Program-made: the position numbers and the translations under genes
The notes under the pieces: generated by a model
Database searches by the model: none
What the model saw: the letters and a program-made list of their open reading frames with translations, nothing else
Told to the model about the DNA's origin: nothing
Source of the DNA: Bacteroidales bacterium
Lineage (GTDB): Bacteria; Bacteroidota; Bacteroidia; Bacteroidales; UBA3663
Assembly (NCBI GenBank): GCA_045598885.1
Contig: JAZRVB010000139.1
Span: forward strand, 14,961-78,960
Direction of reading: 5' to 3'
Length of the DNA stretch: 64,000 bases
Part shown: piece by piece, positions 5,033-62,600 of the stretch
How the letters are laid out: each line of letters begins with the position of its first letter
Numbering within the stretch: position 1 is the stretch's first letter

Positions 5033-5175
5033 CATGCAAAAAAATAACTTGGTATTTTTTTGCATGTCATCCTGAGAGAAACGAAGGATCTCGTAATTAA
5101 CGGATATGGCTACGTGTGAGATGTTTCGCTTTGCTCAACATGACAAGTGAAAAAATACCAAGTTATTTTTTCACT
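5033..5175. repeat. composite palindromic (MITE/REP-like) element between porU and porV
   Basis: Hairpin A at 5033-5066 has a 14-bp perfect stem (CATGCAAAAAAATA / TATTTTTTTGCATG) and loop ACTTGG. The central imperfect hairpin spans about 5066-5144 (GTCATCCTGAGAGAAACGAAGGATCTC vs GAGATGTTTCGCTTTGCTCAACATGAC). Hairpin A' at 5146-5175 has a 12-bp perfect stem and loop CCAAGT, the reverse complement of loop A. Confidence 0.6.
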
Positions 5176-5197
5176 CTAACTGACAACAAATAATACA

Positions 5198-6379
5198 ATG
5201 AAGAGAATACTCATCCTCAGCCTTGCATGTGCATCGTTGACCACAGCTATCGCTCAAGACGAGACCGCGTCAGAGGTTAGCAAATACAATCCGCTCAACC
5301 CTGCCATGATGTCGCTTAGCATCGCACCAGATGCTCGTGGCGGTGCCATGGGCGATGTCGGTGCGGCAACAGAGCCAGACGAGGTCAGCCAATACTGGAA
5401 TCCGGCGAAATATGCCTTTGCCTACAGCCGCAGCGGCATCTCGCTCAACTATACGCCATGGTTGCGCAAAATCACCACGGGCATCAATGTCATGAACGCG
5501 GCCGGCTACTATAAGTTCGGCTACGACGACAACCAGGCGGTCTCGGCCTCCCTGACTTATTTCAGCTTAGGAGAAGTCACGGTGATCAATTCCGAGGGTG
5601 CACAGCTGCAGGTCATCAACCCGATGGAAATGGCGGTCGACGTCGGCTATTCACGTATGCTGAGTCCTAATTTTTCTATGGCCGTAGCCTTCCGCTATCT
5701 CCACTCGGCCATGACATACACCGACTCGGACAACAAGCCAAGCAACACCTTCGCGGCCGACATTGCCGCCTATTATGAGGCCTATCCGCAGATCGGATAC
5801 AATGAGTGCAAGTGGGCCTGGGGTCTCAACATCTCTAACGTCGGTGGCAAGGTCAGCTACGACGGAGGAACGACCAGCCAGTTCCTGCCCGCCAGAATGA
5901 GACTTGGCACCTCATTCACCTTCCCGCTTGACGACTATAACCTGCTTTCTATCAATGCAGATGCAGATAAATATCTCATCCCTGCTACTCCAAAGCGCGG
6001 CAACTATGCGTCGGACGAGGAGTATCAGCAGGCGCTTAAGGATCACTATGCCATGAATGGCTTTACGGGTGTCTTCAAGTCATTCAGTGACGCCCCCCGA
6101 GGCTTCGAAGAAGAACTGGAGGAGATCAACTGGGGCATCGGCGCAGAGTATACTTACGACCGACGTTTCTTCTTGCGAGCCGGTTACCACCATGAGCATG
6201 AAAACAAAGGCGGACGCAAATACTTTACTTTCGGTGCAGGTATCACGCTCAATGTGTTTCATATTGACGCCAGTTACGTGATGAGCAGTGAGCAGACATC
6301 GGCCCTCGACCAGACGTTGCGCTTCACCTTGGGCTTCGACCTCGAAGGTCTTCGTGACATGCTGGGCAGGAGAAGATGA
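5198..6379 (+). CDS. porV: type IX secretion system outer-membrane channel/shuttle protein PorV (LptO)
   Basis: 393-aa ORF with a signal peptide. N-terminal signature APDARGGAMGDVGAATEPDEVSQYWNPAKYAF is typical of PorV. Beta-barrel-like alternating sequence. Located downstream of porU. Confidence 0.85.
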   Translation: MKRILILSLACASLTTAIAQDETASEVSKYNPLNPAMMSLSIAPDARGGAMGDVGAATEPDEVSQYWNPAKYAFAYSRSGISLNYTPWLRKITTGINVMNAAGYYKFGYDDNQAVSASLTYFSLGEVTVINSEGAQLQVINPMEMAVDVGYSRMLSPNFSMAVAFRYLHSAMTYTDSDNKPSNTFAADIAAYYEAYPQIGYNECKWAWGLNISNVGGKVSYDGGTTSQFLPARMRLGTSFTFPLDDYNLLSINADADKYLIPATPKRGNYASDEEYQQALKDHYAMNGFTGVFKSFSDAPRGFEEELEEINWGIGAEYTYDRRFFLRAGYHHEHENKGGRKYFTFGAGITLNVFHIDASYVMSSEQTSALDQTLRFTLGFDLEGLRDMLGRRR

Positions 6380-6413
6380 GAAGCATTGACAGCAATCAAT
6401 TGTAACTCCAATC

Positions 6414-6449
6414 GTAAATCCGTAAATAGTAAATAGTAAATAGTAAATA
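6414..6449. repeat. tandem heptamer repeat (GTAAATA)x4 plus one variant unit
   Basis: GTAAATC at 6414-6420, then four perfect GTAAATA units at 6422-6449. The array ends 4 nt before the GTG at 6454 and 31 nt before the ATG at 6481. Confidence 0.8.
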
Positions 6450-8279: not shown

Positions 8280-8340
8280 GAGTAGGAGCAGATGATATCA
8301 TCGTCACTCGGTACTCTTAACTTTTAACTCTTCACATTTT

Positions 8341-9828
8341 ATGTCACTCATCAAGTCAATCTCAGGCATTCGTGGCACCATCGGCGGTAAGGTCGGTGAG
8401 GGCCTTAATCCACTCGATATCGTCAAGTTCACCGCAGCATACGCTACCGTGATCCGTCGTCATAACCCAGCAGCCAAGCGCATCGTCGTCGGCCGTGACG
8501 CTCGTCTTTCTGGCGAGATGCTCTTCCAGTGTGTCTCTGGCACGCTCATCGGCATGGGCTTCGATGTCATCAACATCGGCCTCGCTACTACTCCTACCAC
8601 TGAGATTGCTGTGACTGCAGAGAAGGCTGACGGTGGCATCATCCTCACCGCTTCGCACAACCCTATCCAGTGGAACGCGCTCAAGCTCCTCAACAACGAG
8701 GGCGAATTCTTCGACAAGGCTACTGGCGAGGAGGTGCTCCAGATTGCCGAGGCAGAGGACTTCGACTTCCCAGCTATCACTCCTAAGACCTACACGGGCA
8801 ACGAGTCACAGACAGAGTCAGATCCTAACTATGAGGGCAATCCTATCGGCCATATCATCGAGAAGGATTATACCGACTACCACATCCAGCAGGTGCTCGA
8901 CCTCAAGCTCGTCGATGCTGAGGCAGTGAAGAAGGCCGGCTTCCGTGTGGTTTGCGACTGTATCAACTCTATCGGTGGCGTGATCATCCCTAAGCTGCTC
9001 CGCACTATGGGTGTTGAGGTTGTCGAGCTCAACTGCCAGCCGACCGGCAACTTCGCTCACATGCCTGAGCCAATCGTGGCTAACCTTCAGGGCATCAGCA
9101 ACTATATGAAGGAGGCATACAATTCCTCACTCCTCACTCCTAACTCCTCACTCAAGATCGATCTTGGCGTGATTGTCGATCCAGATGTCGATCGCCTCGC
9201 ATTCGTACAGGAGACCGGTGAGCTCTTCGGCGAGGAATATACCCTCGTTTCTGTTGCAGATTACGTGCTCCAGCATACTCCGGGCAACACCTGCTCTAAC
9301 CTCTCTTCTTCACGCGCTCTCCGCGACGTGACTCGTGCTCACGGAGGCAGTTACAGCGCTGCAGCTGTCGGTGAGGTCAACGTAGTGACCAAGATGAAGG
9401 ACACCAACGCCATTATCGGTGGCGAGGGAAATGGCGGTGTCATCTATCCTGAGGCTCACTACGGTCGCGACGCTTTGGTCGGTGTAGCTCTCTTCCTCAC
9501 CAACCTCGCTCAGCTCCGCGAGAAGAATCCATCGCTCACCGTCTCTGAGCTCCGCGCAAGCTATCCTCCTTACGAGATCGCTAAGCAGCGTGTAGACCTC
9601 TCTCCAGACATTGACGTTGATGGCGTATTGCTCCGCATGAAAGAGAAGTATCAGGGGCAGCCAGGTATCGAAGTAACTGATATCGACGGCGTGAAGCTCG
9701 ACTTCGAGGACCGCTGGGTACACATGCGCAAGTCTAATACTGAGCCTATCATCCGTATCTATGCAGAGGCTTCGACCATGGAGGAGGCTCAGAAGACGGC
9801 GGATGCTATCAAGGCAGAACTGTCGTAA
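8341..9828 (+). CDS. glmM: phosphoglucosamine mutase
   Basis: N-terminus MSLIKSISGIRGTIGG. Active-site Ser loop TASHNP. Metal loop DPDVDR. At 495 aa it is longer than I recall for Bacteroidota GlmM; see the finding on the embedded 32-bp repeat. Confidence 0.9.
   Translation: MSLIKSISGIRGTIGGKVGEGLNPLDIVKFTAAYATVIRRHNPAAKRIVVGRDARLSGEMLFQCVSGTLIGMGFDVINIGLATTPTTEIAVTAEKADGGIILTASHNPIQWNALKLLNNEGEFFDKATGEEVLQIAEAEDFDFPAITPKTYTGNESQTESDPNYEGNPIGHIIEKDYTDYHIQQVLDLKLVDAEAVKKAGFRVVCDCINSIGGVIIPKLLRTMGVEVVELNCQPTGNFAHMPEPIVANLQGISNYMKEAYNSSLLTPNSSLKIDLGVIVDPDVDRLAFVQETGELFGEEYTLVSVADYVLQHTPGNTCSNLSSSRALRDVTRAHGGSYSAAAVGEVNVVTKMKDTNAIIGGEGNGGVIYPEAHYGRDALVGVALFLTNLAQLREKNPSLTVSELRASYPPYEIAKQRVDLSPDIDVDGVLLRMKEKYQGQPGIEVTDIDGVKLDFEDRWVHMRKSNTEPIIRIYAEASTMEEAQKTADAIKAELS
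9121..9152. repeat. 32-bp repeat copy 1 (inside the glmM CDS)
   Basis: AATTCCTCACTCCTCACTCCTAACTCCTCACT is identical to 20259-20290. Here it is read in frame as NSSLLTPNSSL. Confidence 0.9.
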
Positions 9829-11628: not shown

Positions 11629-12315
11629 ATGGGAGATATTAAGTTACTAATGCAATTAAAAAAACTCACTATAGGATATAAAAGTTCAGCGCCAATCGTT
11701 TTTTCGATTGACGCTGAATTGCTACCTGCTACCTTTACCTGTCTTCTGGGAAGGAATGGCACAGGCAAGAGTACCTTGCTGATGACTCTGGCCGACCTGC
11801 TCAAGCCACTCGACGGACACATTATATATAATAAGGAGCAGCGGCCGGCGCTGGTACTGCCCAAAATGCCAGAACTCACGAATACCACCGTGCGAGAACT
11901 GGTAGCTTACGGACGCCTGCCCTATACCGACCTCTTCGGAAAGTTAAAACCTGCTGATTACGAAGCCGCAGACTCAGCCATAGAACGCGTCGGCATCACG
12001 GCCTTAGCAGACAGATATGTCCATCTGCTGAGCGACGGAGAGCGACAGAAAGCGCTCATCGCCAGAGGCCTCGCACAGGGGGCTGACACGCTCCTCCTGG
12101 ACGAACCGAGCGCCTTCCTCGACTATCCGAGCCGTCGACAGCTGATGACTCTCCTTCAGCAACTTGCACACCAGGAAGGAAAAACCATACTGCTCAGTAC
12201 CCACGATGTGGAACTTGCGGCGCAATACGCTGATAATCTATGGATCATCCTAGACCATCAGCTCATAGAGCAGAATCCTCAGAGCTTCAGCGCCGAGGAT
12301 CACTTCAGCGGCTGA
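11629..12315 (+). CDS. ABC transporter ATP-binding protein (FecE/BtuD-like), no adjacent permease
   Basis: Walker A GRNGTGKST, signature LSDGERQ, Walker B LLLDEP. The track ORF from 11455 overlaps the preceding gene. The ATG at 11629 (MGDIKLL...) follows that gene's stop. Confidence 0.8.
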   Translation: MGDIKLLMQLKKLTIGYKSSAPIVFSIDAELLPATFTCLLGRNGTGKSTLLMTLADLLKPLDGHIIYNKEQRPALVLPKMPELTNTTVRELVAYGRLPYTDLFGKLKPADYEAADSAIERVGITALADRYVHLLSDGERQKALIARGLAQGADTLLLDEPSAFLDYPSRRQLMTLLQQLAHQEGKTILLSTHDVELAAQYADNLWIILDHQLIEQNPQSFSAEDHFSG

Positions 12316-13664
12316 TAGCTGAAATTCTTTACCGTAGCACCCTCCGACACGAGAATAGCCGGACGAAGAGCAAAGAAACCATTGTAATTATTATGGTGAT
12401 AGCCAGAGACGTCTACCCCACTCTCGACGGTTGTCCAGTTCTCTCCATCGAGACTCTTCTCCGTAGTTGCCACGTTCTTATCGTTGCGGATGCGCAGATA
12501 GAAGTGGTTAGAAGTATCCTGCAACCCCAGATTAGCCTCCTCATTATAGAAAAGATATAGACCTGCCTTAGCACCGTCGGTCAATTCAAACTCAGCCGTC
12601 ACTTCATAAGCGCGGTCGACAGCAGTGATTGTCCAGAGCTCAGCGTCGTCAAAGCCTGGCTCCCACTTTGCCCACATGATCGGATTTGTGTAGTCGCGCA
12701 GGGTGGCGTACTGAGCGCTACCTGCCTCATCCTCAACGAAAGCGTTCTCCTCTACAGCGAGTTTTGGCCAACCGTCCTCGGTCCACTCGATGCTCTCGAT
12801 GATCGACGTACGACCCAAAGTATGATAGCTGTTGCGATAAGAATGATAGACGATATACCAGTTGCCCTCAGCATCATCGAAGATTGTGCCATGGCCCTTC
12901 GACCACCACTCCTCATCAGCTGAATAGGTATGTACCAGAGGGTTATAAGGACTGTTCTCCCATGGACCGAGCGCAGACTTGCTGCGAGCGACGACACACA
13001 TGTGACTGGTGGCAGGGCCAGCTGTACCACCCTCGGCAGTCACCAGATAGTAGTATCCATCCTTCTGGAAAAGCTTTGGAGACTCGAGCCATACACCTTC
13101 GGTCTCCCACTCCGATGGGAACTCCCAGCCATCATACAGCTTGGTGTTCTCGCCAGCAGCAGTCAAGCCGTCGTCGGTGAGCTCGATGGCAAAGCCGTTG
13201 TTCGTATAGAGATACTGCTTGCCATTCTCTGCCAGGACATGACCAGGGTCAATGCCATTGACATCAATCAGGATCGGCTCACTCCAAGGGCCTGCTGGTG
13301 TATCGGCCATCACCACGAAGTTCTGGCCAGCGCTGGTCGGATAATAGATATAGAACTTGTCTCCCACCTTGCAGATCTCTGGGGCAAAGATCGAATACTT
13401 CTGATCCAGCACAGCGCGAGAGATCGGCTCCCAGTTCTGCAAGTCGGTAGAATGCCATACGAGCAGGCCTGGATAGTAGGTGAATGACGAATGAGTCATG
13501 TAGAAGTCGTTACCATCGCGGACAATGCTTGGATCAGGATAGTCACCTGGGAAGACGATCTTCTTTATGGTTGTTTTATTAACGGGTGCAGGCTGTGAGC
13601 TGCAGGAAACAGACAGCACGGCAGCAGACAACGCTGCCAGTGTCAGAAGGCCAGTTTTATTCAT
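12300..13664 (-). CDS. glycoside hydrolase family 43 lipoprotein (beta-xylosidase / alpha-L-arabinofuranosidase type)
   Basis: Lipobox VLSVSC|SS. GH43-like N-terminal propeller with the YPDPSIVRDGNDFYM catalytic-Asp region. C-terminal beta-sandwich. The 3' end overlaps the convergent ABC gene by 16 bp. Confidence 0.8.
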   Translation of the reverse strand: MNKTGLLTLAALSAAVLSVSCSSQPAPVNKTTIKKIVFPGDYPDPSIVRDGNDFYMTHSSFTYYPGLLVWHSTDLQNWEPISRAVLDQKYSIFAPEICKVGDKFYIYYPTSAGQNFVVMADTPAGPWSEPILIDVNGIDPGHVLAENGKQYLYTNNGFAIELTDDGLTAAGENTKLYDGWEFPSEWETEGVWLESPKLFQKDGYYYLVTAEGGTAGPATSHMCVVARSKSALGPWENSPYNPLVHTYSADEEWWSKGHGTIFDDAEGNWYIVYHSYRNSYHTLGRTSIIESIEWTEDGWPKLAVEENAFVEDEAGSAQYATLRDYTNPIMWAKWEPGFDDAELWTITAVDRAYEVTAEFELTDGAKAGLYLFYNEEANLGLQDTSNHFYLRIRNDKNVATTEKSLDGENWTTVESGVDVSGYHHNNYNGFFALRPAILVSEGATVKNFSYQPLK

Positions 13665-13673
13665 AGATAATCA

Positions 13674-14579
13674 TTATGCCTCTGGCATCATATCAGGAGT
13701 CTCGCTGCTGACAGCCACCTCCTTGCTGATCTTAGCGACAAGACCCTGAAGGACCTTGCCAGGACCACACTCGATGAACTCGGTAGCACCGTCAGCGACC
13801 ATTGCCTCGACAGACTTGGTCCAACGCACAGGGCTGGTGAGCTGAGCTACGAGGTTAGCCTTGATCTCTGCAGCATCGGTGTGAGCCTTTGCGTCAACGT
13901 TCTGATAGATAGGGCACTTAGGAGTGCTGAACTCAGTTGCCTCGATAGCCTCAGCGAGTTCTGCACGTGCTGGCTCCATGAGGGGAGAGTGGAAAGCACC
14001 ACCGACCTTGAGAGGAGCGACACGCTTAACGCCGAGCTCGGTGAACTTAGCACCAGCAGCCTCGACAGCAGCAACCTCACCAGAGATGATGACCTGACCA
14101 GGACAGTTGAAGTTTGCAGGAACGACCTTGCCCTCGATAGCGGTACAAACCTCCTCCATCTGCTCGTCGGTTACGACGATGTTGCGCTGAAGGACAGCTG
14201 CCATGGTACCAGGATTGGCATCGCAAGCCTTCTGCATGGCCATAGCACGCTGAGAGACGAGCTTCAGGGCGGCCTCGAAAGTGAGAGCACCACAAGCTAC
14301 AAGCGCAGAGAACTCACCGAGTGAGTGGCCTGCTACCATATCAGGAGTAACGCCATTGACGATAGCCGGGATAACAGAACAAAGGAATACGGCAGGCTGG
14401 GTAACCTTGGTCTGACGGAGGTCCTCATCGGTACCAGCGAACATCATATCAGTGATGCGGAAACCAAGAATCTCATTAGCCTGCTCAAAGAGCTGCTTAG
14501 CCTGGTCGTTGGTCTCGTAGAGGTTCTTGCCCATGCCTACGAACTGTGAACCCTGACCTGGGAAAACGTATGCTTTCAT
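13674..14579 (-). CDS. fabD: malonyl-CoA:ACP transacylase
   Basis: N-terminus FPGQGSQFVGMG. Active-site GHSLGE. 301 aa. Confidence 0.9.
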   Translation of the reverse strand: MKAYVFPGQGSQFVGMGKNLYETNDQAKQLFEQANEILGFRITDMMFAGTDEDLRQTKVTQPAVFLCSVIPAIVNGVTPDMVAGHSLGEFSALVACGALTFEAALKLVSQRAMAMQKACDANPGTMAAVLQRNIVVTDEQMEEVCTAIEGKVVPANFNCPGQVIISGEVAAVEAAGAKFTELGVKRVAPLKVGGAFHSPLMEPARAELAEAIEATEFSTPKCPIYQNVDAKAHTDAAEIKANLVAQLTSPVRWTKSVEAMVADGATEFIECGPGKVLQGLVAKISKEVAVSSETPDMMPEA

Positions 14580-14626
14580 TGCTTATAATATTATTAATGT
14601 GAATATTTGATTTTGAACTGCGACTG

Positions 14627-14657
14627 CAAATATAGAACTTTTCGACCAAACTGCAAA
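14627..14657 (-). promoter_or_regulatory. candidate promoter for fabD
   Basis: On the minus strand: TTTG (complement of 14654-14657), a 19-nt spacer, then TATATTTG (complement of 14627-14634). It lies 47 nt upstream of the fabD ATG at 14579. Confidence 0.35.
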
Positions 14658-14779
14658 ATAGCGCGACACGATTTCGGCAAAAATGTGCACATTTACGGAT
14701 TATACGTGCTAAAAAACGCATGTCTATATGACAAATAAACACCATATTCAAGGCAAACATGATTTTTTCAGCAGCTAAG

Positions 14780-14811
14780 TTTGTATATTTGAATAAAAAG
14801 CACTATCTTTG
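14780..14811 (+). promoter_or_regulatory. candidate promoter for galM
   Basis: TTTG at 14780-14783, a 20-nt spacer, then TATCTTTG at 14804-14811. The ATG is at 14865. Confidence 0.45.
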
Positions 14812-14864
14812 CGAGCAAATTCGGTGGCTAAACACCTTTGAACATTACATAAAATACCTATATC

Positions 14865-15944
14865 ATGGCAACTAACAAGTCAGGTTTGAATCCTGAAAAC
14901 TACGCTTCAGTCGTAGACGGCAAGAAGACCGCCCTCTATGTTCTCACCAACAAGAAGGGCTCTGAAATGTGTGTTTGTAACTACGGTGGTATCATCGTGT
15001 CTCTCATGATGCCAGACCGTGACGGTAAGCTCGATAACGTTGTTCTCGGTTTGAGCAACATCGAGGATATGAAGAAGCGCGTTGACCCATACTTGGGCGC
15101 AGCTATCGGCCGTTATGGCAACCGTATTGCCAATGGTAAGTTCACAATCAATGGTGTAGAGTATACTCTGCCACAGAATGATAACACCAACTGCTTGCAC
15201 GGTGGTTTGAGCGGTTTCGAGTCTAAGGTTTGGGATGCTGAGCAGACCGACGAGCAGACTCTCGTACTCCGCTACACCTCAGTTGATGGCGAGGAGGGCT
15301 TCCCTGGCAACCTCAGCATCGTCATGACCTACAAGCTCACCGACGAGAACGAGGTTTGCATCGACTACAAGGCTACTACCGATAAGCCAACCCTCTGCAA
15401 CCTCACCAACCACTCGTTCTTCAACCTGAACGGTATCAGTGGCAAGGCTGAGGCTCCAGTGATCACCAACAACGTGCTCACCTTGAACTGCGACAAGTTC
15501 ATCCCAGTAGATAAGATCGCTATTCCTGTCGGTGTCAAGACTCCAGTGGAGGGTACTCCATTCGACTTCCGTCAGCCAGCTCTTGTTGCAGACCGCATCG
15601 ATGACAACGATACCCAGATCAAGTATGGCGCTGGTATCGACCACAGCTTCTGCATCAACCAGAAGAACGCTGGTGAGATGACCCTCGCTGCTGTCTGCGA
15701 GTGCCCTGCTACCGGTCGTGTATTGAGCACCTATACTACTGAGCCAGGTCTCCAGGTTTACTCTGGTAACTTCCTCAACGGCACCGTAGGCGTTGGCGGC
15801 ACCGTCTTCCCACGTCGCTCAGGTATCTGCTTCGAGGCTCAGCACCACCCAGACTGTATCAACCAGCCTAAGTTCGAGCAGTGCATTCTCAATCCAGGCG
15901 AGACCTACAGCCAGACCACTGTTTACGCTTTCTCAACAAAGTAA
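14865..15944 (+). CDS. galM: aldose 1-epimerase (galactose mutarotase)
   Basis: 359-aa ORF with mutarotase-like motifs (GRYGNRIANGKF, NCLHGG, TNHSFFNL, CFEAQHHPD). Located next to galK. Confidence 0.9.
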   Translation: MATNKSGLNPENYASVVDGKKTALYVLTNKKGSEMCVCNYGGIIVSLMMPDRDGKLDNVVLGLSNIEDMKKRVDPYLGAAIGRYGNRIANGKFTINGVEYTLPQNDNTNCLHGGLSGFESKVWDAEQTDEQTLVLRYTSVDGEEGFPGNLSIVMTYKLTDENEVCIDYKATTDKPTLCNLTNHSFFNLNGISGKAEAPVITNNVLTLNCDKFIPVDKIAIPVGVKTPVEGTPFDFRQPALVADRIDDNDTQIKYGAGIDHSFCINQKNAGEMTLAAVCECPATGRVLSTYTTEPGLQVYSGNFLNGTVGVGGTVFPRRSGICFEAQHHPDCINQPKFEQCILNPGETYSQTTVYAFSTK

Positions 15945-20207: not shown

Positions 20208-20220
20208 GAGACCCTACCCC

Positions 20221-20247
20221 CTACCCCTCCACAAGGGAGGGGAGTAG
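20221..20247 (+). terminator. GC-rich hairpin after lepA
   Basis: CCCCTCC (20224-20230) pairs with GGAGGGG (20236-20242) around a 5-nt loop. Flanking TA/TA pairs follow a bulge. There is no clear U-tract. Confidence 0.4.
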
Positions 20248-20258
20248 AATGTCCTCCT

Positions 20259-20290
20259 AATTCCTCACTCCTCACTCCTAACTCCTCACT
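20259..20290. repeat. 32-bp repeat copy 2 (intergenic, lepA to methyltransferase)
   Basis: Identical to 9121-9152. It ends 5 nt before the ATG at 20296. Related CTCCTCACT words also occur at 28666-28682. Confidence 0.9.
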
Positions 20291-22629: not shown

Positions 22630-22696
22630 TCTATCCGGAAGAAAATATTCAAATAATCTCACATTGTGTCACTAAGACACAAATAGGAACGGAAAT

Positions 22697-22840
22697 ATGG
22701 CTTCGCGTTTTTACGAAGCCATATTTCTGTTTTTATTTATGGTTTCGTTCATGCACGAAGCCATAACCTGGTACCTATCTATGGTTTCGTTCATGCACGA
22801 AGCCACAACCTCGTACCCATCTATGGTTTCGCGTCAGAGG
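22697..22840. repeat. tandem hairpin array, 42-bp period, about 3.4 units
   Basis: Units start at 22697, 22739, 22781 and 22823 (ATGG[C/T]TTCG...CGAAGCCA[T/C]). Each unit holds a 9-bp stem. The 66-aa ORF 22697..22897 is a translation artefact of the repeat. Confidence 0.85.
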
Positions 22841-22912: not shown

Positions 22913-23515
22913 TTAGCCAATACCGAAGATAGCCTTGAGAGTGTTGTCGATGCCAGAGAAGCCCATGAAAGCCATGGCAAGGAGACCTGCGGTGATGAGG
23001 GCAATAGGGGTTCCCTTCATGCCCTTAGGAAGGCTGGTGATCTCGAGCTGCTCGCGGATACCTGCGAAGAGGACCATAGCGAGGGTGAAGCCGAGAGCGG
23101 TAGCTACAGCGTATACTGCTGACTCAAGGATGTTGTACTCGAAGTTGATGACGTTGATGGCAACACCAAGGATAGTACAGTTGGTAGTGATCAATGGGAG
23201 GAATACACCGAGAGCTGCATAGAGCGATGGCATAGACTTCTTGAGGATGATCTCGACCATCTGTACGAGAGCAGCGATAACGAGGATGTAGACGATGGTC
23301 TGCATGAACTCGAGGCCTGCTGGTACGAGGATGCCGTAGTAGATAGGATAAGTCACCAAGGTAGCGATAAGCATAACGAATGCTACTGCCATACCCATGC
23401 CAGCTGCAGTGTCGATCTTCTTAGATACACCGAGGAATGGACAGATACCAAGGAACTGTGCCAGGACGATATTATTAACGAATATCGCGGCAATGATCAT
23501 AATAATATAACTCAT
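22913..23515 (-). CDS. rnfA: Rnf electron transport complex subunit A
   Basis: 200-aa polytopic membrane protein of the RnfA/NqrE type. Last gene of the rseC-rnfBCDGEA order. Confidence 0.9.
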   Translation of the reverse strand: MSYIIMIIAAIFVNNIVLAQFLGICPFLGVSKKIDTAAGMGMAVAFVMLIATLVTYPIYYGILVPAGLEFMQTIVYILVIAALVQMVEIILKKSMPSLYAALGVFLPLITTNCTILGVAINVINFEYNILESAVYAVATALGFTLAMVLFAGIREQLEITSLPKGMKGTPIALITAGLLAMAFMGFSGIDNTLKAIFGIG

Positions 23516-23531
23516 GATTCTGTATCTTTTA

Positions 23532-23654
23532 GTTTAGAGTTTAGAGATTAGAGTTTAGAGAAGTTAATTAGTTCTATAGGTTATTGGAAAACCAAAACAC
23601 ATAATAGCTCTTAACTTATTAACTACTCTCAACTATAAACTCTCAACACTAAAC
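23532..23654. repeat. long imperfect hairpin element filling the rnfE-rnfA spacer
   Basis: The arms 23532-23573 and 23613-23654 are complementary at 34 of 42 positions. They are built from GAGTTTAG-type words. The loop is about 39 nt. Confidence 0.7.
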
Positions 23655-25906: not shown

Positions 25907-26032
25907 ATTCTATAAATTGAAGAATTGAAGAATTAAAGAATTATAAAATTGTTACCTTTTCTTCGCGAATAATCTCGTCAAAAGGACATTCAATTCTATC
26001 ATTTTTTAATTCTATCATTTTATAATTAATAA
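25907..26032. repeat. AT-rich hairpin element filling the rnfC-rnfD spacer (paralog of 27416-27560)
   Basis: The arms 25915-25951 and 25991-26027 are complementary at 27 of 37 positions. The loop contains TTCGCGAA. Long blocks are shared with the rnfB-rnfC element (ATAAAATTGTTAC.., ..TTATCATTTTATAATT). Confidence 0.7.
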
Positions 26033-27415: not shown

Positions 27416-27560
27416 ATTATCAATTTTGCTTTTACAATCAAAAAATCAAATTATAAAATTGAAGAATTAGAAAATTATAAAATTGTTACTTCTCTTACGC
27501 GAAATGTCACATCAAGCAGCACATACAATTCTATAATTATTTAATTTTATCATTTTATAA
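27416..27560. repeat. AT-rich hairpin element filling the rnfB-rnfC spacer (paralog of 25907-26032)
   Basis: Two arms of about 37 bp (about 27450-27486 and 27525-27561) are complementary at 29 of 37 positions. The loop contains TACGCGAA. Confidence 0.7.
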
Positions 27561-28553
27561 TTATTGGTTCTGCTGTGCTGCAGCTGGAGCAGCGGCAGGA
27601 GCAGCCTGCTGTGCTACTGGGGTAGCCTCAGCAGCGGCCTTGGCAGCGGCAGCAGCCTCTGCGGCAGCCTTCTTCTCAGCTTCCTTCTTAGCCTTGAGCT
27701 TGTCGACTACAACCTGGACAGCTGGAGTGCAGTGGATAGCACCTGTTGGGCACTCGCTTACGCACATGCCACAAGCCTTACACTTCTCTACGTCGATGTA
27801 AGCCACATTGTTCTCAACGGTGATAGCCTCGAACTTACAGGTCTTCTGGCACTTACCACAACCGATACAAGCGCTGGCACAAGCCTTACGAGCCGCAGCA
27901 CCCTTGTCCTTGTTGATACAAGATACCCAGACACGCTTAGGCTGGTTAGACTTCATTGAGGTCTTCTTGCGGAGCTCAAGCACGATCTTAGGACATGCCT
28001 TCGTACAAGCACCACAAGCCACACACTTGTCTTCGTCGACCTCAGGAAGGCCAGTCTCAGTGTTCATGTGGATAGCATCGAAGGTACAAGCCTTCACACA
28101 GTCACCCAGTCCGAGACAGCCGAATGCGCAACCAGTCTCGCCAGCGAAAGTAGCAGCAGCTACAGCACAAGACTTAGCGCCATCGTAGCTGGCAGTCTTA
28201 GGGCGGCAAGCAATGCTACCATTACAACGAACCACAGCGACCTTTGGTTCAGCAGCACCAGCCTCTACACCGAGGACACCAGCCACCTTAGCCATGCAGT
28301 CAGCGCCACCTACAGGACAGAGCAGGCTACCCAGCGAATTGCTGGCATCCTTCTCCTTCACGCAGGCATCGGCCATACCGTGGCAACCAGGGAAGCCACA
28401 GCCACCGCAGTTAGCGCCTGGCAGCAACTCCTCTACCTGACCCACTCGTGGATCTTCGAAGACATAGAACTTCTTGGCCACAAAATAAAGGACCAAAGAG
28501 CCAATGACTCCAATCGCACCAAGTACGATAAGAGAAACTAAAATTAAATTCAT
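27561..28553 (-). CDS. rnfB: Rnf electron transport complex subunit B (polyferredoxin-type)
   Basis: N-terminal TM helix. Cys clusters CGGCGFPGC, CVACGACTKACP, CIGCGKCQKTC and CKACGMCVSECP. A C-terminal tail of about 50 aa is rich in Ala, Lys, Pro and Gln. Confidence 0.9.
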   Translation of the reverse strand: MNLILVSLIVLGAIGVIGSLVLYFVAKKFYVFEDPRVGQVEELLPGANCGGCGFPGCHGMADACVKEKDASNSLGSLLCPVGGADCMAKVAGVLGVEAGAAEPKVAVVRCNGSIACRPKTASYDGAKSCAVAAATFAGETGCAFGCLGLGDCVKACTFDAIHMNTETGLPEVDEDKCVACGACTKACPKIVLELRKKTSMKSNQPKRVWVSCINKDKGAAARKACASACIGCGKCQKTCKFEAITVENNVAYIDVEKCKACGMCVSECPTGAIHCTPAVQVVVDKLKAKKEAEKKAAAEAAAAAKAAAEATPVAQQAAPAAAPAAAQQNQ

Positions 28554-28588: not shown

Positions 28589-28682
28589 CAGTTAGGAGTG
28601 AGGAGATAGGTGTTAGGAGTTATTCCTGCAACGTAAAATAAGCGCGTGAGGGGAAACACTCCAAACTCCTCACTCCTCACTG
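28589..28682. repeat. imperfect hairpin element in the rseC-rnfB spacer (AGGAGTGAGGAG words)
   Basis: The left arm CAGTTAGGAGTGAGGAG... starts at 28589 and the right arm ...CTCCTCACTCCTCACTG ends at 28682. The first 17 bp pair with 1 mismatch. The loop contains AGCGCGTGAGGGG. Confidence 0.65.
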
Positions 28683-46287: not shown

Positions 46288-46324
46288 AACTCTTTAACTT
46301 TTTAACTCTTTAACTTTTTAACTT
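46288..46324. repeat. tandem 16-bp repeat (AACTCTTTAACTTTTT x2.3)
   Basis: Perfect units at 46288-46303 and 46304-46319, plus a partial unit at 46320-46324. It lies directly 5' of the GTG start at 46286 on the coding (minus) strand and fills most of the 51-bp spacer. Confidence 0.85.
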
Positions 46325-53492: not shown

Positions 53493-53618
53493 GGAACGGA
53501 CGTCTTGAGTGCACGGCGTCCATTCTTTGTCGCGGGAATGGACAGCCTGAGTCCACGGCGTCCTTTCTTTGCAGCGGGAATGGACATTCTGAGTCCACGG
53601 CGTCCATTCCTTGATCGC
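53493..53618. repeat. tandem hairpin array, 42-bp period, 3 units
   Basis: Units start at 53493, 53535 and 53577 (GGAA[C/T]GGAC..16 nt..GTCC[A/T]TTC). The clearest, unit 3, pairs GGAATGGAC with GTCCATTCC. Located in the 278-bp gap between the 800-aa and 830-aa genes. Confidence 0.85.
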
Positions 53619-53652
53619 GGAAGCTGACATCGCGTACGTGTTGTCAGCTTCC
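53619..53652 (-). terminator. perfect 11-bp hairpin adjoining the 42-bp array (attenuator/terminator or RNA-stability element)
   Basis: GGAAGCTGACA (53619-53629), a 12-nt loop, then TGTCAGCTTCC (53642-53652). In the sense direction it is the first structure after the 800-aa gene's stop at 53706. Confidence 0.45.
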
Positions 53653-61373: not shown

Positions 61374-62600
61374 TTAATTATGTAAAGGTACTTCATAAAC
61401 CACCTCGTCATAATCCTCGACGGTCGGGACGAAGAGTGATCCTGATCCACCCGGGTTAGGCCCTGGGTCAGGTATCGGAAGATCATTGCAGTCGATGATC
61501 ACAGTGATGACACCGCCATGAGACTGCTCGCGGCACTGCTTGGTAACATCGTACTGCAGCGTCTGCTCAACGCCGTTGCGGAACTTGACATCGACCATCA
61601 GATAATTTGGAAGGTCCGTTCGCGAACCGCTGTAATTATGATCTGGAGCATCATTAAACGACAGCATATCGCAGAGGCCAAAGGTAGTGAACTTACCACC
61701 AATGATCTGACAGTCCTGATCGCGCACCGGATAGCCATACTTCATAGATTCCTTGTAACGGGTGTTGAAGTAGACAATGACCGGATCGTTTTTGGTGTGA
61801 CCTGTATTGACATTCGTACCACTTGAAAATGCCGTAAGGGCAGCGTTTCCAGTAGTACCGACAACTCGGCCATCGTTATTGAAGAAAATCACCTGCACCA
61901 GATAGATGAATGCCAACGGATTGAGGTGACAGTCAATATGACGGACCCAGCAATGCTCTATTTCATCGTAGTAATCATAGTCTCGCATATCCTGCGAGAT
62001 GTAGATGTCTGGAGTATTGGCTCCGTAGAAAACCTCCGGCTGATTGTAGAGACCCGTTACGGCATTGGTACTGCTCGAACCAGCCTGCTCGTTCTCCGAA
62101 GCAAAAAGTCGGGTCAAGCCACGCGACACAGAAGTCGTAGCTGTGATTGTATCAAGGCGCGAGTCATCGATCTTCAAAACCTGCGTGCCATCCTCAGAGT
62201 CAATATTGCTCCAGATAAGCAGGTCATAATAGCCGAACTGGTATGTACGACGGAAACGATTGCCGAAAACGGTGAATGCATCGACGTTGGTGTGCGGAGC
62301 GCCTGGCTGATCACCTAGATAGTATCGTCGAACCTCATAATTAGTTGGGACAGGGTAGGCAATTGGACCCCAAAGCGTTGAGTCGACATCGTCCCAGCCA
62401 TAGTACCAGCGATACTTCCATTCTGGATCAATATCCCATACTACATCAATATCAGTAATAATATCCGGGAAGTCCATGACCACATCCTGTGCAGGGAGTT
62501 TCAAAGGCGGCTCGATGCAGGAGTTGAGAGTTAACAGTGAACAGTTAACAGTTAACAACGACAGCAGACAGAGGATGTTATTTAGTAATTTCTTTTTCAT
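61374..62600 (-). CDS. DUF5119-like lipoprotein (possible FimB/Mfa2-type pilus anchor or accessory protein)
   Basis: Lipobox LTLNSC|IEP. No TR[AST] propeptide motif at the position seen in the 13 pilin-like genes. Trp/Tyr-rich N-terminus (WKYRWYYGWDD) and NQPEVFYG resemble what I recall of DUF5119. Overlaps the upstream gene by 4 bp. Confidence 0.55.
   Translation of the reverse strand: MKKKLLNNILCLLSLLTVNCSLLTLNSCIEPPLKLPAQDVVMDFPDIITDIDVVWDIDPEWKYRWYYGWDDVDSTLWGPIAYPVPTNYEVRRYYLGDQPGAPHTNVDAFTVFGNRFRRTYQFGYYDLLIWSNIDSEDGTQVLKIDDSRLDTITATTSVSRGLTRLFASENEQAGSSSTNAVTGLYNQPEVFYGANTPDIYISQDMRDYDYYDEIEHCWVRHIDCHLNPLAFIYLVQVIFFNNDGRVVGTTGNAALTAFSSGTNVNTGHTKNDPVIVYFNTRYKESMKYGYPVRDQDCQIIGGKFTTFGLCDMLSFNDAPDHNYSGSRTDLPNYLMVDVKFRNGVEQTLQYDVTKQCREQSHGGVITVIIDCNDLPIPDPGPNPGGSGSLFVPTVEDYDEVVYEVPLHN

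Follow-up and report, generated by a model that had tools for sequence, protein, structure and literature searches.

A heptamer-repeat unit carried in frame within a loop of the phosphoglucosamine mutase GlmM in a Bacteroidales bacterium

The 64,000-nt stretch of Bacteroidales DNA analyzed here (referred to as the window) is part of contig JAZRVB010000139.1 and carries glmM at 8341..9828 on the plus strand. The gene encodes a 495-amino-acid (aa) protein that passes the NCBIfam equivalog TIGR03990 (archaeal-type phosphoglucosamine mutase) with 473 bits against a cut-off of 439 and has 1WQA and 9DU5 as homologues in the PDB. Within its coding sequence lies the 32-mer AATTCCTCACTCCTCACTCCTAACTCCTCACT, which recurs in the spacer between lepA and an adenine DNA methyltransferase gene. 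In a search of the window, this 32-mer was found exactly at 9121-9152 and 20259-20290 only, both on the plus strand, and there were no further matches in the window with up to three mismatches; based on 100 dinucleotide-preserving shuffles, the number of matches expected by chance is 0. The flanks of the two copies are unlike (TAC before and CAAG after the copy in glmM versus CCT before and AAAT after the copy in the spacer). Coordinates and chance expectation thus agree with the original prediction, made from the letters of this DNA, that a 32-bp exact repeat with differing flanks is shared by the two sites. The 32-mer is itself a tandem 7-nt array (TCCTCAC × 4.3). Tandem Repeats Finder (TRF) delimits the copy in glmM at 9124-9153 (period 7, 4.3 copies, 91% matches) and the copy in the spacer at 20254-20290 (period 7, 5.3 copies). 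The latter array, on the plus strand, consists of the 32-mer plus a partial extra unit, has a sense strand without G, and ends 5 nt before the ATG (20296) of the methyltransferase gene.

In glmM, the 32-mer together with the following C forms a 33-nt unit of ACTCCT[A/C] heptamers at 9121..9153 on the plus strand, which is read in frame as the 11 codons N261 to L271. Consistent with the original prediction, the encoded peptide is NSSLLTPNSSL (N261-SSLLTPNSS-L271) and precedes the metal loop, lying nine residues ahead of the first Asp of DPDVDR. In phosphoglucosamine mutases, DPDVDR is the Mg-binding metal loop and TASHNP is the active-site serine loop; in our GlmM alignment, DPDVDR does not vary, and TASHNP is missing from only one sequence, which has a gap there. 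We measured the length of the loop from PEP to VDPD in 142 GlmM homologues. It has 24 residues in 108 of them, representing Bacteroidales in general, 29 residues in the near clade, and 34 or 36 residues in the alleles with repeat-derived sequence, with 36 in the window. An alignment with orthologs also confirms that the closest of them lack the insert (LAKG[QK]SY) and that the loop is even shorter in more distant Bacteroidales. The window GlmM has 14 residues (YNSSLLTPNSSLKI) where the sister alleles have seven (LAKGQSY); the change is best described as a patch replacement from 7 aa to 14 aa rather than as a clean insertion.

Mapped onto a phosphohexomutase structure, the insert site falls where the Pyrococcus horikoshii mutase 1WQA has a gap of 12 residues, in the connection between a helix and the strand before the metal loop. 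In the AlphaFold model, in which the fold is retained, the helix extends to residue 265, residues 266-274 form a coil, and residues 275-279 form the strand; the mean predicted local distance difference test (pLDDT) score is 75 for residues 261-270 and 84 for residues 271-280. Based on the gaps, the predicted secondary structure, and general knowledge of domain 2 of phosphohexomutases, the insert loop is probably at the surface and away from the active site. The original prediction had noted that this GlmM is longer than usual. Its 495 aa bear this out; however, the extra length is mostly due to a separate, clade-wide insertion (TPKTYTGNESQTESDPNYEG) at GlmM residues ~147-166 (window 8770-8845), which accounts for ~20 of the ~30 extra residues and is not the heptamer unit. 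This insertion has no counterpart in the 465-aa GlmMs of Bacteroidales and has low pLDDT in the model. A heptamer ancestry of the insertion at 8770-8845 is unconvincing; it has only one 10-mer (TCACTCCTAA) in common with the repeat family.

An exact-protein look-up gave no record of the window GlmM elsewhere, and short repeats can mislead assemblers, both of which would fit with the 32-mer in glmM being an assembly artefact, a repeat-induced chimera, or contamination. Such an origin is, however, effectively excluded because four other, independent assemblies (L124, L125, L126, and L127) carry the in-frame insert in the same codons, with an intact reading frame and lineage-specific substitutions. 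These are two NCBI metagenome-assembled genomes (MAGs) and two assemblies from the European Nucleotide Archive; the projects and the assemblers behind them differ (SPAdes NODE contigs and k141 contigs), and their nucleotide identity to the window in glmM is 88-92%. They came to light as 495-aa and 493-aa members of the 90%-identity cluster of the best homologue, and their loops read YNSSLLTPNSSLKI, YNSSLLTPNSSPKI, YNSSHLTPNSSPKI, and NNSSLLTPNSSF. In a codon-based neighbor-joining tree, the insert alleles form one clade (93/100 bootstrap), the sister alleles of which read LAKG[QK]SY, and the substitutions in the insert follow the gene tree. The insert has a length of 33, 33, 33, 33, and 30 nt in the five assemblies, always in frame; variants that differ by 7-nt steps were not found among them, and the flanks of the 30-nt variant are unlike those of the others. 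Because the insert alleles form one clade spanning lineages that are 8-14% diverged in glmM, the event is old and probably single, and the insert is carried by a small clade of gut or rumen Bacteroidales.

Between pairs of these assemblies, the insert has diverged by 3-15% and the whole of glmM by 2.5-14%, and the changes in the insert include L to H and L to P. There is no sign that the insert is under special constraint. We consider it unlikely that the insert has been exapted, either as an S/T/N-rich loop that serves as a regulatory or interaction site or as an RNA segment that binds a factor of the leader arrays and thereby couples glmM regulation to them. It is true that the insert has been kept in frame across species-level divergence, that it diverges somewhat slower than the gene in several pairs, and that the orientation of the arrays relative to start codons described below suggests an RNA-level function. 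However, the L to H and L to P changes are non-conservative, the shorter variant has different flanks, and sister lineages do well with unrelated sequence or none at the site. Because no evidence of a function in GlmM was found, we argue for tolerance rather than exaptation. Thus, of the original idea that an intergenic unit inserted in frame and is tolerated as a loop of an essential enzyme, the tolerance is supported by the five assemblies and by the gap at the loop, while the pure insertion gives way to a replaced patch and the exaptation to an insert that diverges about as fast as its gene.

The unit consists of 7-nt ACTCCT+[A/C] repeats ending in ACT; in its commonest form, AACTCCT is followed by three further repeats and [A/C]ACT, giving ~32 nt, and the 32-mer corresponds to ~4.5 heptamer units. 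Searches with the core CTCACTCCTCACTCCTAACTCCTCAC and the pattern ACTCCTMACTCCTMACTCCT provided the genome loci L007-L123 and the metagenome loci L137-L256. The 26-nt core of the 32-mer has >117 exact matches in species-representative genomes, including Bacteroidales, Clostridia, Negativicutes, Synergistaceae, Planctomycetota, Kiritimatiellaeota, Chloroflexota, a few Proteobacteria, and many heterocystous cyanobacteria. The cyanobacterial matches are long mixed arrays; outside cyanobacteria, approximately half of the matches end exactly at the limits of the 32-mer, with AA[C/T]TC before the core, T after it, and unrelated flanks beyond. In an independent metagenome sample, for which three cores were required, 31 of the 127 arrays are at a peak of 32-34 nt, usually starting with (T)AACTC and ending with [A/C]ACT. 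The length distribution of the unit accordingly has its mode at 32-34 nt, with sharp ends and a long tail. The core is present in only 2 of 2.9 million viral contigs, and one of these matches is identical over 30 nt on each side to the Kiritimatiellaeota genome match L048. Among the 123 genome matches, the CT-rich strand is the sense strand in 32 cases versus 5 when the start of a long open reading frame (ORF) lies within 60 nt (p = 7e-6). This orientation rules out a role of the AG-rich strand in front of genes as a Shine-Dalgarno site in multiple copies. Several copies can occur in one genome, with nine sampled in the Oscillospiraceae MAG JAZSGG and seven in the Clostridiales MAG RUG11878. 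Of the Oscillospiraceae copies, five are embedded in a bigger repeated module with a hairpin at its end (gaatttgacgagc..gctcgtcaaatt).

Within a widespread heptamer family, the 32-mer is the most frequent form. Since this ~32-nt unit is found in many phyla next to unrelated sequences, the identity between the copies in glmM and in the spacer does not identify the donor. We therefore doubt that a recent ectopic gene conversion, with the lepA-methyltransferase spacer 11 kb away as the direct donor, gave rise to the glmM copy. In favor of this scenario, the copies are exactly identical (32/32) in unlike flanks, the spacer array upstream of the methyltransferase gene is kept in L124 with one mismatch in the 32-mer, and the only two differences between the glmM copies of the window and L124 (AAC to AAT and CTA to CTC) both correspond to the spacer state. 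However, both changes are synonymous and one is forced, AAC to AAT being the sole synonymous option for Asn, and we estimate the probability of a coincidence at roughly 0.1-0.3. Moreover, the insert predates the split of the lineages that are 8-14% diverged in glmM, the glmM and spacer copies of L124 differ at 3/32 positions, and the 26-nt core, with the same AATTC and T flanks that it has in the window, is found exactly in Ruminococcus, Oscillospiraceae, Synergistaceae, and others. The non-insert relative P0121 offers no lepA-methyltransferase junction for comparison, since a kinase gene follows truA in its contigs instead of lepA, and the contigs of L001 and L125 end before the spacer.

Nineteen of the 123 genome matches are spanned by long open frames, and Pfam domains were detected in 8 of 10 tested ORFs with an in-frame unit. 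Based on Pfam, these ORFs encode a DegT aminotransferase (L065:3468-4619, plus strand; from the same MAG as L125), an alpha-amylase (L039:4439-6166, minus strand; from the same MAG as L124), an RluA-type pseudouridine synthase (L049:3895-5625, minus strand), a Synergistaceae alanyl-tRNA synthetase (AlaRS; L044:6147-8000, plus strand), and a TolC-like outer membrane efflux protein (L047:4401-5801, plus strand), as well as an ABC-F protein, a ResB/CcsA protein, and a DUF4369 protein. The unit is read as NSSLLTPNSSL or PHSSLLTPH in two open sense frames and as SEELGVRSEE in one open antisense frame. In the DegT protein, the array inserts 11 residues that the solved homologue 7N63 does not have; in the case of AlaRS, the PDB alignment reaches residue 461 only, and the array is at residues 518-527. 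Copies within ORFs represent 9 of 17 matches in Bacteroidota versus 10 of 106 elsewhere (p = 9e-5). We speculate that Bacteroidota tolerate Shine-Dalgarno-like motifs in ORFs because Shine-Dalgarno pairing is unused there.

The original prediction regarded glmM as an unusual case; it is not an isolated one, given the in-frame units in other ORFs and given that the same GlmM loop has been filled twice more by other arrays. The resulting three independent acquisitions of leader-type arrays in one GlmM loop are the most striking result tied to the finding. In L003, the loop reads NCQIVNGQIVNKY, and the underlying DNA (ATTGTAAATGGTCAAATCGTAAAT) is 22/24 identical to a heptamer array that lies ~800 bp upstream and ends 8 nt before the start of the same glmM gene; the chance expectation for this match is 0. 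The non-insert sisters of L003 (86/100 bootstrap) have LAKGQSY, and the presumed ancestral GGTCAG lines up with a GGTCA that is retained in the middle of the patch in L003, suggesting microhomology in the formation of this patch. In L002, the loop reads AASQSSNSKCF and has an 11-mer in common with the L003 array (~3e-4 matches within the array are expected by chance); a comparison with the rest of its 7.5-kb locus gave no near-exact partner for the L002 loop at three mismatches or fewer. L002 and L003 were never grouped on the tree (0/100).

The leaders 5′ of glmM vary by lineage. In the window, a G-free ACTCTTA/ACTTTTA heptamer array at 8313..8340 (plus strand; TRF) abuts the glmM start codon, whereas the leaders contain ACTGTTA six times in L125 (9937-10000), AATCGTA in L002 (2950-3000), AAATTGT in L003 (2960-3000), and AACCTTTCG in L004 (2930-3000). 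Among the lineages compared, the glmM-leader spacer thus has a different array family or none, and many of the leader units have an ACT triplet in common at a 7-nt spacing. The unit of L125 is close to ACTGTTG, the reverse complement of CAACAGT, the unit of the short tandemly repeated repetitive (STRR) sequences of cyanobacteria. Arrays that the window has are missing from the corresponding spacers of its closest relative, so that leader arrays turn over quickly.

Altogether, we suggest that 9121-9153 is a tolerated in-frame copy of a dispersed heptamer unit that has its usual home in the G-poor leader directly upstream of start codons, and we assign this explanation a probability of roughly 70%. 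As the alleles show, one ancestral event in a small Bacteroidales clade replaced the patch coding for LAKGQSY with YNSSLLTPNSSLKI, after which the copy drifted at roughly the rate of the gene. According to this model, the copy would have survived because two frames are open on the CT-rich strand, its length is divisible by three, and the loop tolerates changes in length; the insert itself would do nothing for the enzyme. The 32/32 identity with the spacer would reflect two copies of the same common unit, although a later short conversion in this lineage is also possible. As for the copying itself, we infer a short, one-step templated patch, formed by template switching or homeologous conversion and seeded by microhomology to an array at another chromosomal site, because 7-nt slippage steps break the frame, because the unit has neither inverted ends nor a target duplication, and because L003 has a near-identical template close by. 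Stepwise slippage and cut-and-paste transposition would fit less well.

Specifically, growth of the array on site through replication slippage, starting from an ACTCCT-like stretch present by chance in the ancestral loop codons, is very unlikely. The sequence GCA CTC GCT AAG in L001 resembles CACTCCTAA, the ancestral-type GCACTCGCTAAG resembles the repeat unit, and heptanucleotide repeats have been described as the most abundant class of long simple sequence repeats, with slippage proposed as the cause (Mrazek 2007, as summarized in PMC4679880). By contrast, every 7-nt step would throw an essential gene out of frame, and 33 is not divisible by 7; the start, the end, and the A/C pattern of the insert are the same as in dozens of unrelated copies; and the five assemblies are without length polymorphism except for one 30-nt form. 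We tentatively consider a further possibility, which goes beyond templated copying of a common repeat, namely that the ~32-nt unit is an actively propagated "nano-element" without terminal repeats, target duplication, or a gene of its own, of which fresh copies are written from a conserved template, by some patch-copying process, into leaders and permissive coding loops. The GlmM loop would then be a recurrent landing pad that has been hit three times. Such an element would be common to Bacteroidota, Bacillota, Synergistota, Planctomycetota, Chloroflexota, and Cyanobacteria, with landings in ORFs mostly in Bacteroidota, possibly because Shine-Dalgarno pairing is unused there.

Several points weigh against a tolerated, drifting copy that arose by simple templated copying. 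An empty-site allele (EAY-KIDLG) was not found, and both the boundaries of the insert and the distinction between insertion and replacement are judged from sister alleles that are 12-15% diverged. Likewise, the surface position of the loop is predicted from alignment gaps and secondary structure and not from coordinates, and the copying mechanism is deduced from its end products only. Simple template switching does not explain the 32-nt mode and the cross-phylum identity, which hint at a dedicated process. Finally, the window glmM copy agrees with the spacer at both positions at which it differs from L124, and this may reflect ongoing conversion and a small departure from drift.

Word arrays are also found elsewhere in the window. 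A AATCGTAAAT / AGTAAAT array at 6397..6449 (plus strand; TRF) abuts the start of a DHH-family gene and belongs to the same word family as the arrays in the glmM loops of L002 and L003; the leader of the DHH-family gene is a 75-nt spacer with this array in the window, whereas L124 (8101-8120) has a 21-nt spacer without it, an instance of how fast leader arrays are gained or lost. An ACTCTAA heptamer array at 23531..23560 (minus strand; TRF) lies 15 nt upstream of the start of the gene at 22913-23515 on the minus strand. Between two minus-strand genes, ACTCCT[A/C]-family arrays form an inverted pair at 28589..28682, with arms at 28589-28613 and 28658-28682 that are 44 nt apart; the CT-rich arm is sense-oriented, 36 nt upstream of the start at 28553, and the predicted RNA fold has an energy of −44.4 kcal/mol (z = −6.2). 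The words of the 32-mer, originally reported for one arm of this hairpin, are present in both arms. An intergenic module at 25914..26028 has arrays of 8-nt words (AATTGAAG.. and AATTCTATCATTTT..) at both ends, and a ~115-nt copy of this module is at 27448-27563, with arrays that are 78-89% identical; both are upstream of minus-strand genes and may be hairpin-type composites like the pair at 28589-28682. A AACTCTTT/AACTTTTT array of 8-nt words at 46288..46324 is located between two minus-strand genes, and an AGTTAAC/AGTGAAC heptamer array at 62521..62557 is located in an intergenic spacer (both TRF). Directly 3′ of the lepA stop codon, a hairpin made of CCCTACC words at 20212..20247 (plus strand; read from the sequence, with a TRF row at 20212-20227) looks terminator-like.

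Using a relaxed detector, we found seven period-7 arrays in the window versus 0 in shuffles and none with a period of 6 or 9-12; the strict version of the detector found one period-7 array. Non-coding DNA, which makes up ~6.5% of the window, contains five of the seven (p = 2e-5). Most of the window arrays abut a start codon or are at most ~50 nt upstream of one, with a G-free sense strand; specifically, arrays end 0-36 nt before the starts at 8341, 6454, 20296, 23515, and 28553. Rfam at gathering thresholds gave no match in the window.

The window also has 42-nt tandem repeats at 22734-22831 (2.3 copies, 92% matches) and 53506-53620 (2.7 copies, 84%), which are unrelated to the heptamers; the former shares part of its length with an inverted repeat at 22671-22748. 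At 14580-14865, the 286-nt spacer between divergent acyltransferase and aldose-epimerase genes is 100% identical to L124 within a syntenic block of ~92% identity; this conservation points to a strongly constrained regulatory region, an unannotated RNA, or a recent exchange. The 166-nt spacer at 5033-5198 contains a long imperfect palindrome with arms at 5039-5092 and 5118-5171 that are 81% complementary. The orthologous spacer in L124 has 5 nt, and 5033-5198 looks like a lineage-specific hairpin, resembling an insertion of a MITE (miniature inverted-repeat transposable element), between the C25 peptidase and PorV genes. The 454-aa ORF at 12300-13664 on the minus strand has no counterpart in the syntenic L124, in which 13886-13936 corresponds to window 12282-13673, and is a lineage-specific gene insertion.

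Heptamer arrays upstream of bacterial genes have been known for decades. The glmM locus provides a dated and directional event, in which a repeat entered an essential enzyme, with filled and unfilled alleles in close lineages. It also provides natural replicates, because the loop has been filled three times by different arrays, once with a likely template ~800 bp away in the gene's own leader, and a link to a cross-phylum ~32-nt unit that is in frame in other housekeeping-family ORFs, mostly in Bacteroidota. The locus therefore allows tests of how such repeats are copied and why they are tolerated, and it shows a route by which loops in conserved enzymes can be lengthened. For annotation, the occurrence of NSSLLTPNSSL or SEELGVRSEE in a conserved protein is a sign of repeat-derived DNA and need not be an error. 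If the unit were an active cross-phylum element, it would offer a tractable system in which to search for the machinery and to follow how repeats drive the evolution of loops in essential enzymes.

Among known repeat systems, the STRR heptamers of cyanobacteria were reportedly described by Mazel in 1990. Beggiatoaceae, Cyanobacteria, and a few Bacteroidetes have intergenic TAACTGA heptamers a short distance upstream of start codons, with no evident vector (MacGregor 2015, PMC4679880). A small number of ORFs contain them as well, chiefly at the ends of proteins or within hypothetical ones, and only stop-free frames survive (PMC4679880); as summarized in the same source, heptanucleotide repeats predominate among long simple sequence repeats in most genomes examined (Mrazek 2007). 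Like the TAACTGA repeats, the window unit is a tandem 7-nt repeat that is mostly intergenic, close to starts in a fixed orientation, present in distant phyla, and occasionally found in ORFs; it has the head-to-tail 7-nt copies, the many, mostly intergenic loci, and the orientation upstream of starts that characterize heptanucleotide arrays. In contrast to the TAACTGA repeats, its unit is ACTCCT[A/C] with a preferred, sharp-ended form of ~32 nt, it lies in the middle of an essential enzyme, and the same loop was hit repeatedly by other arrays. The small dispersed repeats of Nostoc, reportedly described by Elhai et al. in 2008 and from cyanobacteria only, are 21-27 nt long, sharply bounded, without an encoded function, apparently mobile, and associated with heptamer-repeat regions. 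The window unit may be a comparable short, dispersed repeat; its ends are sharp, its mode is 32-34 nt with a long tail, and its sequence differs.

Rickettsia palindromic elements are found in frame in metabolic genes, are ~150 bp long and palindromic, and are confined to Rickettsia (reviewed in PMC10969869). The window unit resembles them in being a repeated non-coding element in frame in unrelated housekeeping genes that gives rise to a fold-compatible peptide (GlmM loop, DegT). The conserved peptide of those elements has a loose parallel in NSSLLTPNSSL, PHSSLLTPH, or SEELGVRSEE, which recur in unrelated ORFs. By contrast, the window unit has 32-33 nt, is a direct heptamer array without a palindrome, and crosses phyla. 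It shares with MITEs and with repetitive extragenic palindromic (REP) sequences and REPINs that it is short, non-autonomous, multi-copy, intergenic, and sometimes arranged as a hairpin, as in the pair at 28589-28682; unlike these, the 32-mer has no terminal inverted repeats, target-site duplication, palindrome, or self-complementarity. A gene for a transposase or a REP-associated tyrosine transposase was not noticed in the list of window ORFs, of which those beyond the ones examined were not scanned against family libraries. The five in-frame lengths (33/33/33/33/30 nt), the lack of 7-nt steps among them, and the essential housekeeping host speak against a phase-variable coding repeat. A literature search for these DNA words and peptides returned no bacterial mention and only unrelated eukaryotic primer sequences. 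Thus, that repeat DNA can be tolerated in frame is already known; what appears to be undescribed is the ACTCCT[A/C] unit with its ~32-nt form, the frequency of its copies within coding sequences of Bacteroidota, and the threefold filling of a single GlmM loop.

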